Source: Leucoraja erinacea (taxonomy: Eukaryota). From it: DNA of 64,000 nt. A program made the translations under genes and the position numbers. Positions 46,668 through 57,674 of the stretch are shown here, one piece after another. Under the pieces are notes generated by a model. It was not told the DNA's origin and searched no databases. It saw only the letters and a list, made by a program, of their open reading frames with translations. The stretch covers positions 8,308,001 through 8,372,000 of the forward strand of contig NC_073414.1 of the NCBI RefSeq assembly GCF_028641065.1. Direction: 5' to 3'. How positions within the stretch are numbered: position 1 is the stretch's first letter; the number at the start of each line of letters is the position of its first letter.

Positions 46668-46803
46668 TTCTTCTTCTTGCGTATGGCTTGCACAGCCTAA
46701 AGTTGTAGATCAAGTTGTTCTATTTGATCTTGTTTGTACACGTTGGGTTAATTGCATTTGTCGAAACAGGGTGGACCACGTGAAGGTTGCAATCTCCCAC
46801 CCC
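46668..46803 (-). mobile_element. ~135-bp ribozyme-headed SINE-like element, copy 1 (in the presumed SERTAD 3'UTR, antisense)
   Basis: TSD cctcctgcc (46659-46667 / 46805-46813); 3' tail ...gccatacgc(aag)n. Confidence 0.85.
46750..46803 (-). ncRNA. Compact HDV-like (CPEB3-type) ribozyme fold, copy 1
   Basis: GGGGUGG-GA-GAUUGCA-ACC-UUCACGU-GGU-CCACCCU-GUUUCGA-C-AAA-UGCAAUU: P1 7 bp with G1.U, P2 7 bp, P3 3 bp, L3 UUCACGU, catalytic-position C. Confidence 0.8.
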
Positions 46804-46818
46804 ACCTCCTGCCCTGAA

Positions 46819-46849
<31 letters not shown>

Positions 46850-47220
46850 CCCAACCCCACACCCTCGTCCTCCCTCAAACCGAACAATGCCACCATCTGC
46901 TGGAGGTGGGGGTGGTGGGTGCGTGCTGGCCCTGTCCCATGACTCGCATTCTACTCAGGGCCCTCAATCGATGCGGGGCAACACTTCACGTCCATGTACC
47001 GAGCGGACAGGCAGTGGAGGTGGGCGGGCGGCGGGAGAGGACGGGGCCACATACATACAGACAAATGGGAACGGGTGCTCACCGACGTGGCTGTCGGCAA
47101 TGCCGCCTCCGGGCAACAACTGCTCAAGGCCGCAGGAGAGGTGGATCAAAGATGTTTCGTATTGTACCTGGAAATGTGGCGGGGAGAGTTTTAAACTAAC
47201 GATCATGTTGAATGTGCGTT

Positions 47221-47790
47221 TTCTCTCTCTCTCACTCTCTCTATCTCTCACTCTCTCTCTATCTCTCTCTATCACTCTCACTATCTCTCACTCTATCACT
47301 CACTATCACTCTCACTATCTCTCTCTATCTCTCTCACTCTATCTCTATCTCTCTCACTATCACTCTCACTCTATCTCNNNNNNNNNNNNNNNNNNNNNNN
47401 NNNNNNNNNNNNNNNNNNNNNNNNNNNNNNNNNNNNNNNNNNNNNNNNNNNNNNNNNNNNNNNNNNNNNNNNNNNNNNNNNNNNNNNNNNNNNNNNNNNN
47501 NNNNNNNNNNNNNNNNNNNNNNNNNNNNNNNNNNCTCACTATCACTCTCACTCTATCTCCCTCTCTCACTATCTCTCTCACTATCACTCACTCTCACTCA
47601 CTCTCACTCTATCACTCACTATCTCTCTCTCACTCTCACTCACTATCACTCTCACTCTATCTCCCTCTCTCACTATATCTCTCACTCTTATCACTCTCAC
47701 TCTCTTCCCTCTCCTCCCCTCTCCACCTCTCTCCCCTCTCTCCTTCTCTCTCTCTCTCTCTCTCCCTCTCTCCCTCCCCTTCTCTCTCTG
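47221..47790. repeat. (CT)/(CTAT)/(CACT) microsatellite spanning an assembly gap
   Basis: Direct inspection. Confidence 0.9.
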
Positions 47791-55400: not shown

Positions 55401-55888
55401 AGAATTTAGGAGATTGAGGGGGGATCTTATAGAAACTTACAAAATTCTTAAGGGGTCGGACAGGCTAGATGCAGGAAGATTGTTCCCGATGTTAGGGAAG
55501 TCCAGGACAAGGGGTCACAGCTTAAGGATAAGGGGGAAATCCTTTAAAACCGAGATGAGAAGAACTTTTTTCACACAGAGAGTGGTGAATCTCTGGAACT
55601 CTCTGCCACAGAGGGTAGTTGAGGCCAGTTCATTGGCTATATTTAAGAGGGAGTTAGATGTGGCCTTGTGGCTAAGGGGATCAGGGGGGTATGGAGAGAA
55701 GGCGGGTACGGGATACTGAGTTGGATGATCAGCCATGATCATATTGAATGGCGGTGCAGGCTCGAAGGGCCGAATGGCCTACTCCTGCACCTAATTTCTA
55801 TGTTTCTATGTTTCTATCATGGCTAATCTATCTCTCCCTCCTAACCCCGTTCTCCTGACTTCTCCCCATATCCTCTGGCACCTGTACT

Positions 55889-56022
55889 TCTTCTTTCATG
55901 TGGCGTGCACAGCCTAAAGTTGTAGGACAACTTGTTCTATTTGATCTTCTGTTCATGCATGTCGAGTTGATTGCATTCGTGGAAACAGGGCGGACCACGT
56001 GAAGGTTGCCATCTTCCACCCC
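55889..56022 (-). mobile_element. ~135-bp ribozyme-headed SINE-like element, copy 2 (inserted in a CR1 fragment)
   Basis: 12-bp TSD ggcacctgtact (55877-55888 / 56023-56034); (aag)n tail. Confidence 0.85.
55969..56022 (-). ncRNA. Compact HDV-like ribozyme fold, copy 2
   Basis: GGGGUGG-AA-GAUGGCA-ACC-UUCACGU-GGU-CCGCCCU-GUUUCCA-C-GAA-UGCAAUC; one P2 mismatch; G1 abuts the TSD. Confidence 0.75.
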
Positions 56023-57534
56023 GGCACCTGTACTGATCAAGAATCTATCCATCTCTGCCTTTAAAATATCCACTGACTTGGCCTCCACAGCTTTCTGTGG
56101 CAAAGAATTCCACAGATTCACCACCCTCTGTGTTTTCATCTCAATCCTGTCTTTTCATCTCTGATCTTTGTCCACTATCTGCTATCAACCCCCCCATCTC
56201 CTCACCTGTATCAACCTTACACCTGTCACAGACTTGCACCTCCTCTCTTCCAGTTTTCTAAACCCTCTACCTTCCCCATTCTACATTTAACCCAAAACGT
56301 CACCTATCCATGTTCACCAGTGATGCTGCCTGCCTGCCTGCTGAGTTACTCTAATATTTTGTGCTGCATTTGTCTAATTTCACCGTGCAGCTAATAAATT
56401 CTAATCCAGGTAACATTCTGGTAAAGATAGACACAGAGTGCTGGAGTAGCTCAGTGGGTCAGGAATCATAGGTACACAAAATTGCTGGAGAAACTCAGCG
56501 GGTGCAGCAGCATCTATGGAGCGAAGGGAATAGGCAACGTTTCGGGCCGAAACCCTTCTTCAGACTCAGGAATCATCTCTGGAGAAAAAGGGATGGGTGA
56601 CATTTCTGGTAGGGACCGTTCTTCAGACTAAGAAGGGTCCTTTTGCTGCCTGACCCGTCATTTACTCCAAGAGTGTCTATCTTTGGTTTCTACTTTGATC
56701 AGCATTCTGGTAAACCTCTGCACATTTCCCCTAAGCTTCCACATCCTGTAAGGGGTGGCCAGAACTACACGCAATAATCCAAATGCGGCCTGACCATGGT
56801 CCTGTTAAGATGCATCAGGACTTCCTGGCTCTTACACTTAAAGCCCCACTATTGAAGGTAAGCATACCACATGTCTTCTTTATCCCACTCTGTCTACTTG
56901 TGTTACCAATGTCAGGGAGCTGTGAGCCTCTACCTGTACATATCTGTACCAACCTTGTTTTTTAGTTTTAGTCTCCAAATCTGAGGAAGAATTAAAGGGG
57001 GAGAAGGCTGATTCCTTGTCAGGACTGTCTGACTGGTGAGTTTATAAAATTTAGGAGATTGAGAGGGGATCTTATAGAAACTTACACCCATAGAGATGTG
57101 GAATCTGATGGAATTGTCCCTGTCCACAGAAGGCAGTGGAGGCCAAATCCTTTAAAAACCTGGATGGACTTTTTTCACACAAGAGTGGTGAATCTGTGGA
57201 ACTCTCTGCCACAGAGTAGTTAGGCCAGTTCAGCTCTATGTGGGCCAGTGGAAGGGGAAGGGATATGGGGAGAAGGCAGGCACAGGTTATTGATTGGGGA
57301 CGATCACAATGAATGGCGGTGCTGGCTAATGCATTTAATGCATTTTGTTGTGAGGTGAGAAAAAACTCTGCACTGTACACTGACAATGACAATTAAAATT
57401 GAATCTGAATCTGAATCTGAAGGGCCGAATGGCCTCCTCCTGCACCAATTTTCAATGTTTCTATGTTTCTATCTTCTAGTACATCTAAAAATTCTATTAT
57501 TAATGAGTTGAGATATTAATGGAAATCACATCCA

Positions 57535-57674
57535 GTCGTCTTCTTGCGTATGGCGTGCACAGCCTAAAGTTGTCGGACAACTTGTTCTATTTGATCTTAT
57601 TTGATTCTGCACGCCAGGTTGATTGCATTCGTTGAAACAGGGTGGACCATGTGAAGGTTGCAATCTCCCACCTC
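57535..57674 (-). mobile_element. ~135-bp ribozyme-headed SINE-like element, copy 3
   Basis: TSD at[c/t]acatcca (57525-57534 / 57675-57684); same body and tail as copies 1-2. Confidence 0.8.
57621..57674 (-). ncRNA. Compact HDV-like ribozyme fold, copy 3 (degenerate)
   Basis: GAGGUGG-GA-GAUUGCA-ACC-UUCACAU-GGU-CCACCCU-GUUUCAA-C-GAA-UGCAAUC; P1 mismatch at position 2 and an L3 G>A change. Confidence 0.65.

Follow-up and report, generated by a model that had tools for sequence, protein, structure and literature searches.

The analysed window, a 64,000-nt stretch of contig NC_073414.1 from Leucoraja erinacea, contains three copies of a short element that we call family A. Family A is a non-autonomous, internally deleted (bipartite) derivative of a Vingi-type long interspersed nuclear element (LINE). 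Its anatomy, the ends it shares with the LINE, its fixed 5′ end, and its conserved fold were all observed, and we regard this account of the anatomy as close to certain. Taken as a whole, it is very probable that family A is such a deletion derivative carrying a predicted self-cleaving head of the hepatitis delta virus (HDV) type. Papers are cited by PMC identifier. In window coordinates, the features are:

46668–46803, minus strand: family A copy 1, a non-autonomous Vingi derivative (136 nt)
46750–46803, minus strand: 54-nt HDV-like fold of copy 1, without helix P4 (17 of 17 pairs; G1 at 46803, predicted catalytic C at 46760)
46668–46713, minus strand: LINE-derived 3′ end of copy 1 (final codons of the open reading frame (ORF), 3′ untranslated region (UTR), and AAG tail)
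46804–46813, unstranded: 5′ target-site duplication (TSD) of copy 1 (9 nt exact, or 10 with one mismatch)
46658–46667, unstranded: 3′ TSD of copy 1
55889–56022, minus strand: family A copy 2 (134 nt)
55969–56022, minus strand: HDV-like fold of copy 2, with a single P2 mismatch (predicted catalytic C at 55979)
55889–55930, minus strand: LINE-derived 3′ end of copy 2
56023–56034, unstranded: 5′ TSD of copy 2 (12 of 12)
55877–55888, unstranded: 3′ TSD of copy 2
57535–57674, minus strand: family A copy 3 (140 nt)
57621–57674, minus strand: decayed HDV-like fold of copy 3 (P1 mismatch at position 2, G25 of L3 lost; predicted catalytic C at 57631)
57535–57580, minus strand: LINE-derived 3′ end of copy 3
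57675–57684, unstranded: 5′ TSD of copy 3 (10 nt, one mismatch)
57525–57534, unstranded: 3′ TSD of copy 3

An initial annotation of this DNA had placed three minus-strand copies at these coordinates, each flanked by a TSD of 9–12 bp and starting at G1. All three were found there, with no further full copies in the window, and their TSDs measured 9 (or 10), 12, and 10 nt. The TSDs of copies 2 and 3 directly adjoin G1. That of copy 1 can be read either as 9 exact nucleotides or as 10 with one C/T mismatch, in which case it also adjoins G1. Copy 1 lies near a single-exon ORF encoding a SERTA domain (45729–46565, plus strand, 278 aa from stop to stop). As the copy is antisense to this ORF and ~100 nt past its stop codon, it would not cut the SERTA-domain mRNA.

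Family A is composed of the first ~75 nt of a LINE, a junction of ~20 nt that looks like a local duplication of an A-rich 5′ UTR motif, and the last ~45 nt of the LINE with an (AAG)n tail. A second match at locus L028 corresponded to the 3′ end of a LINE terminating in a CCHC finger, and alignment of the ends showed that this LINE and family A have the last ~45 nt in common. First-look searches for the partner LINE gave 730 candidates for the 3′ end and 95 for the start of the reverse transcriptase (RT). A full-length copy, with both ends and a TSD, was located in the same genome (locus L121). It begins with the identical 54-nt head, followed by a 5′ UTR of ~105 nt and then the apurinic endonuclease (APE) domain. 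Family A therefore has what defines a bipartite non-autonomous element, namely the 5′ end of an autonomous LINE together with its 3′ end, tail, and TSDs. Four further deletion junctions (loci L085, L173, L181, and L196) indicate that the LINE gave rise to several bipartite derivatives.

Assignment of the partner was based on its coding capacity. The ORF of the LINE is collinear with the single-ORF APE–RT proteins P0054 (Anolis) and P0001, leaving no room for an RNase H domain, and homologous proteins of 960–1000 aa likewise lack an RNase H entry. Pfam analysis of a related LINE in this genome (family B, below) identified APE and RT only. This compact single-ORF layout without RNase H fits the definition of Vingi (PMC13708176), and we call the partner Vingi-type for that reason; the name rests on architecture and host range, with P0054 itself presumed to be Vingi. 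The initial annotation had proposed a SINE-like (short interspersed nuclear element) retroposon mobilised by a LINE, with an Ingi/Vingi-type partner. The partner was recovered with the same head and tail, and the link to a LINE held. The independent status of a SINE did not, as the element is an internally deleted LINE whose ribozyme came from the LINE.

The same annotation had recognised neither a tRNA head nor RNA polymerase III (Pol III) boxes. In agreement, no tRNA gene was found for the element, and one representative copy gave no match to an A box or B box. A Pol III SINE would carry a small-RNA head with both boxes; the head of family A is LINE-derived. A tRNA or Pol III origin was therefore rejected.

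To gauge abundance across the 2.19-Gb genome, we counted pattern matches with 2 mismatches permitted. The 31-nt head pattern gave 11,175 matches and the 34-nt pattern from the 3′ half gave 9,849, with none for either reversed control. The 5′ ends of these copies proved to be fixed, as the initial annotation had anticipated. Among the first 30 loci chosen by the 3′ pattern alone, 28 reach the G1 region (the alignment starts at position 1 in 23 and at positions 2–5 in 5), while one is truncated at position 14 and one lacks the head. The 5′ truncations of the partner LINE are scattered, unlike these ends. In a separate set of 30 loci picked by head positions 10–40, a TSD was identified in 19, ending exactly at G1 in 11 and within 2 nt of it in 8. 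The stretch was present, whole or in part, in 21 of 23 listed sequencing-run rows under 8 organism labels, with no RNA run listed among them; a scan of ~6% of the reads of one raw DNA run returned none on the element.

Rearranged LINE copies also point to G1. An inverted piece ends ≤16 nt from G1 in 7 of 60 LINE loci (some of which overlap), and a single TSD brackets the whole inverted structure in 3 of 5 evaluable loci. These pieces are products of twin priming on an RNA starting at G1. Inversions of the ribozyme head, often ~70–85 nt long and fused to a distant 3′ fragment, were frequent (L065, L067, L094, L098, L099, L106, and L113), and the same pattern recurred in L155, L157, L162–L165, and L168. 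Such inversions suggest that the LINE protein keeps the 5′ fold near the second nick. The notion that they prime only just behind the ribozyme was dropped, since L113, L067, L104, and L105 carry long inverted pieces.

Segmentation of the 54-nt head into paired (P), joining (J), and loop (L) elements gave the order P1 (7 bp), J1/2 (2 nt), P2 (7 bp), P3 (3 bp), L3 (7 nt), P3′, P1′, J1/4 (GU), 5 nt, C.AA, and P2′, with a G1•U pair in P1. This is the nested double pseudoknot of HDV-like ribozymes, with P1 (6–7 bp), P2, and P3 in the expected order and the core bases in place: the G1 pair, U20/G25, C22 with the G of J1/4, and C-N-A-A. The values given in the initial annotation describe the family consensus. 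Its layout is present in the window, but only copy 1 (J4/2 CAAA) retains all 17 pairs. Copy 2 has a sole mispair, G13/A51 in P2, and copy 3 combines an A2/C35 mismatch in P1 with the missing G25. The annotation had further interpreted the 5 nt between J1/4 and J4/2 as a vestigial P4. They are unpaired and form no helix, so this reading was replaced by that of a P4-less linker. Lacking P4, family A fits the minimal subclass described in PMC10879173.

The structure could in principle be a chance pattern in an ordinary short repeat. No HDV or CPEB3 match emerged when the entire window was compared with Rfam at E ≤ 1. In an 86-nt search, copy 1 scored 14.8 bits against the CPEB3 model RF00622 (cut-off 35) and 17.2 bits against RF02682 (cut-off 44). 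ViennaRNA z-scores were near 0 (−1.3 to +0.7), from a program that cannot score pseudoknots. While these results speak for chance, comparison with other Vingi-type heads pointed in the opposite direction. The Rfam search that the initial annotation had proposed left copy 1 below the cut-offs but detected sister heads in this genome and in metagenomes: families B–F and loci L236 and L237 all pass the RF00622 cut-off, with 35–64.9 bits.

Scanning the genome with RF00622 gave 59 scored candidates, of which 48 reached the cut-off (best 64.9 bits); the count for prokaryotic control genomes was 0 of 14. We inspected 42 of the 48, and every one heads a further repeat family. Family B is a young Vingi-type LINE of ~3.15 kb with APE and RT, whose copies are 95–97% identical; full-length copies L135, L136, and L141 (~3.15 kb each) carry CPEB3-like heads of 51–62 bits. 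In families C and E, the ORF start lies downstream of the head. Heads of family D adjoin inverted Vingi-type coding fragments (L155, L157, and L315). Family F (loci L321–L326 and L332–L363) is a second short element of ~170 nt that is flanked by TSDs and ends in an AAG tail; its pattern matched 2,281 times (control 0). Its 5-nt P4-less linker matches that of family A column for column, while P1, P2, and P3 differ. P1 is 6 bp in most family F copies, a length usual for HDV-like ribozymes (PMC4908430), and the G of the G•U pair remains their first base. A search for the autonomous LINE partner of family F did not find one and instead yielded family G (L364–L393), a Vingi-type family with TAAA tails and one inverted, decayed HDV-like head in L368.

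Beyond this genome, a metagenomic set comprised 80 loci with related ORFs, and the 29 having some upstream DNA were scanned. A strict fold descriptor matched 5 of the 29 (3 distinct elements), compared with 1 match in 198,480 shuffled bases, and a relaxed descriptor applied to 18 loci added 2 elements. Thus, the fold lies 210–290 nt upstream of the APE match in five distinct metagenomic Vingi-type elements. The TSD boundary falls at G1 in L271 and one base before G1 in L237 and L279. A separate contig scan returned 4 partial RT fragments only, none with a 5′ end. Vingi-like RT fragments also occur in prokaryotic genome bins (L310–L313), probably as eukaryotic contamination, and a similar protein (P0116) is labelled Moorena.

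Covariation was assessed in an alignment of 8 heads (families A–E, L236, L247, and L279), 3 of which had been chosen by the pairing descriptor and 4 by the CPEB3 model. Outside the pair count were family F and loci L254 and L271, where an 8-nt L3 or a 6-bp P1 is misaligned. Across the 8 heads, 97.8% of cells were paired and 12 of 17 pairs showed two-sided change, while G1•U never varied. No shuffle out of 500 was paired as highly, and slid registers reached 40–56%. The catalytic C, U20, C22, G1•U, and the A-A of J4/2 were invariant. P2 is absent from the RF00622 model and was nevertheless fully paired, providing an independent test for the 4 heads that the model had picked. Within family A, only one-sided or neutral variants were seen. 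Common variants at positions 8, 32, and 45 are structure-neutral (J1/2, U-A versus U•G, and CGAA versus CUAA). Slight covariation within a family is expected of insertions decaying neutrally, so the evidence comes from comparison between families. This covariation across Vingi-type families backs the HDV-like fold that had been claimed. Unrelated Vingi families carry this fold at the corresponding position with compensatory changes, which refutes a chance origin barring a flaw in the alignment, and we assign that explanation a negligible probability. Locus L247 has the same P3 as family A together with a full P4, which indicates that the core of family A derives by reduction from an ordinary Vingi head. 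Vingi-type LINEs in general very probably start with a head of this HDV-like kind.

These data are consistent with the following model. The first 54 nt would fold co-transcriptionally into the P4-less double pseudoknot and cleave 5′ of G1, as HDV-like folds do in releasing R2, L1Tc, and NARTc RNAs (PMC3383444, PMC4035085, PMC6765202). Cleavage would free a unit-length RNA from a longer transcript, arising either by host read-through or from a promoter of its own. Although the initial annotation had called the element promoter-less, the latter is possible for family A because the first 77 nt of L1Tc and NARTc (Pr77) serve as both ribozyme and internal promoter (PMC3383444). The LINE protein (APE, RT, and CCHC finger) would then bind the 3′ end of the RNA, and probably also the 5′ fold, and insert a copy by target-primed reverse transcription, producing TSDs of 9–13 nt.

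Alternatively, the head may be homologous to HDV-like ribozymes while cleavage is no longer needed in family A, the P4-less fold serving instead as an internal Pol II promoter at the DNA level, as a site where the LINE protein binds, or as a shield against 5′ exonucleases. The dual role of Pr77 fits this proposal, as does the cap-like protection conferred by the fold on R2 templates (PMC13708176). Family A has moreover lost P4 and has a short J1/2, and bipartite elements require their 5′ end for something beyond release. However, families A and F have both kept the catalytic C, G1•U, and the L3 core despite lacking P4, as has the LINE of family A. In vitro cleavage is on record for natural HDV-like ribozymes without P4 (PMC10879173), and the 5′ boundary tracks the G•U pair where P1 is 6 bp. 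The alternative is also compatible with a dual role. We regard outright loss of the need for cleavage as improbable, and the P4-less core as likely to be active in self-cleavage.

Several observations weigh against this account of a self-cleaving head. The Rfam scores of family A fall under the cut-offs. All pairs and core bases are intact in just 7 of 29 unbiased family A copies, and the sampled loci lean towards younger copies because they were picked as exact pattern matches. A fixed 5′ end would equally result from an internal promoter. Between 0 and 2 extra bases separate the TSD from G1 in several full-length elements, including family B. No strict match was found in 24 of the 29 metagenomic loci, many of which are truncated or short, without an intact 5′ end. 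There is some circularity in the covariation test, given how 7 of its heads were chosen. Finally, the 2-nt J1/2 could slow cleavage: among J1/2 spacers of an Agam-2 ribozyme, 0–1 nt gave little or no activity and 3–7 nt gave more (PMC4908430). We nonetheless favour the self-cleaving head described above.

Among human self-cleaving RNAs, the mammalian CPEB3 ribozyme is the most thoroughly studied, and it has been linked to memory. The initial annotation had noted that L3, J1/4, and J4/2 of family A are of CPEB3 type; they are indeed common to both, as are G1•U and a one-pair P1.1. It had also proposed family A as a mobile relative of the CPEB3 ribozyme. That relationship stands for Vingi heads as a group, with family A (14.8 bits) among the more distant of them: by hand count, 27 of 49 core positions agree with the Rfam CPEB3 consensus. 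Other heads are far closer. At locus L236 (55.6 bits), 36 of the first 39 CPEB3 positions are identical. With the P4 loop set aside, the majority sequence of six family D copies agrees with the Rfam consensus at 59 of 63 positions (hand count), and the entire 7-bp P4 stem is among them. Two of the 4 differences make up one compensatory P2 pair, and one position is tied 3:3. Family D is an old Vingi-type family (heads L145, L148, L153, L154, L315, and L316) and the best candidate relative of the CPEB3 ribozyme.

An RT tree placed families B, C, and D and locus L237 in one clade with proteins from Anolis, lancelet, sea urchin, and psyllid (ultrafast bootstrap 100), while family A fell outside this clade, which holds the CPEB3-like heads. 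The tree was unrooted, with no outgroup and no named Vingi or Ingi references; L113 and L123 represent one locus, and families E and F were not included. In one RT clade, then, the Vingi-type head has almost the same sequence as the mammalian CPEB3 ribozyme, and the latter is probably an exapted Vingi 5′ end.

Such likeness might instead reflect convergence under the constraints of the HDV fold. Every HDV-like ribozyme is under constraint in L3, J1/4, and J4/2, and it is these that family A shares, with few stem positions; the CPEB3 match also spans only ~63 nt. Nevertheless, sequence conservation is reported to be lacking among HDV-like ribozymes (PMC4836649), and stem sequences vary freely among Vingi heads, which makes descent far likelier. 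Convergence would have to account for the family D and L236 matches, for the grouping of the CPEB3-like families B, C, and D and loci L236 and L237 in one RT clade, and for a Vingi relic, X12_LINE, in the human genome (PMC5753468). We consider it unlikely. The ribozyme occupies a single locus in mammals while the mobile family is widespread, which makes the retrotransposon the likelier donor.

Combining these lines of evidence, Vingi LINEs are probably HDV-headed in general, and the CPEB3 ribozyme is probably an exapted head inserted in a CPEB3 intron before the marsupial–placental split. Two short families would have cut the ribozyme to an active P4-less core of 53–54 nt, present at more than 13,000 sites, with about a quarter of family A fold-intact. 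If correct, the CPEB3 ribozyme would have a concrete, testable origin in a retrotransposon clade that matches it with 94% identity at the 5′ end outside the loop. That ribozyme has been termed young in evolutionary terms and might have given rise to the HDV ribozyme (PMC4836649). The CPEB3 papers covered name no source for it, and its origin is not discussed in the available passages of PMC8233481. HDV-like ribozymes of lamprey, lancelet, and sea urchin were reported in 2009, with spread by retrotransposition proposed (PMC8256844); some of these may be Vingi heads.

Ribozyme-headed elements with internal deletions are already known and reportedly include the R2 SIDEs. The closest parallels are NARTc, RIME, and SIDER, derivatives of L1Tc and ingi, which like family A are internally deleted LINEs; what remains is a 5′ piece of ~77 nt, whose HDV-like ribozyme sits at +1, and a 3′ piece of ~30–45 nt (PMC3383444, PMC4035085). 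Family A differs from NARTc in its vertebrate host, a Vingi-type partner without RNase H, its length (135 versus 263 nt), the absence of P4, a copy number above 11,000, and cleavage that is predicted only. Bipartite non-autonomous derivatives of Vingi-1_EE, which join the 5′ and 3′ ends of a Vingi LINE, belong to the same class (Kojima 2018, PMC5786205). As for the fold, the drz-Mtgn and theta ribozymes likewise form a nested double pseudoknot lacking P4, and their J4/2 begins with the catalytic C. They come from metagenomes and gut phages and process tRNAs (PMC10879173), whereas family A heads an animal retroposon and has CPEB3-type L3 and J1/4. The CPEB3 ribozyme (RF00622) has the shared core features listed above, and families B–E and L236 share nearly its whole sequence. 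Family A differs from it in the sequences of P1, P2, and P3 and in lacking P4, and CPEB3 is a single conserved intronic locus of proven activity.

In the passages available, Kojima 2018 lists ribozymes for six clades, Vingi not among them (PMC5786205). We met no Vingi ribozyme, Vingi origin of CPEB3, or animal P4-less form in the literature covered, which did not extend to the founding ribozyme and Vingi papers, Repbase, Dfam, or patents; an earlier partial description is quite possible. A ribozyme head would explain why Vingi, like RTE, Ingi, and R2, yields bipartite derivatives, a question left open in PMC5786205. P4-less HDV-like ribozymes would also gain a source among animals; until the phage examples were found, their origin was described as undetermined (PMC10879173). 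Vingi 5′ UTRs are in use in RNA gene-writer templates (PMC13708176), and a self-cleaving head would affect their design. Thousands of fold-intact genomic copies would be predicted to show an orientation bias in introns.

The remainder of the window holds several other features. An intronless thioredoxin-domain ORF (34702–35214, minus strand) lies beside a stretch of N and is possibly a processed copy. A GIY-YIG fragment (20518–20895, minus strand) is presumably Penelope-like, and a match to ALKBH8_N (6820–7284, plus strand) is of a kind that LINEs typically show at their 3′ ends. Several near-perfect hairpins, each built from parts of a single abundant repeat joined head to head, lie at 48640–48741, 39204–39311, 25381–25506, 52251–52308, and 2303–2414, and these cause spurious Rfam miRNA matches.

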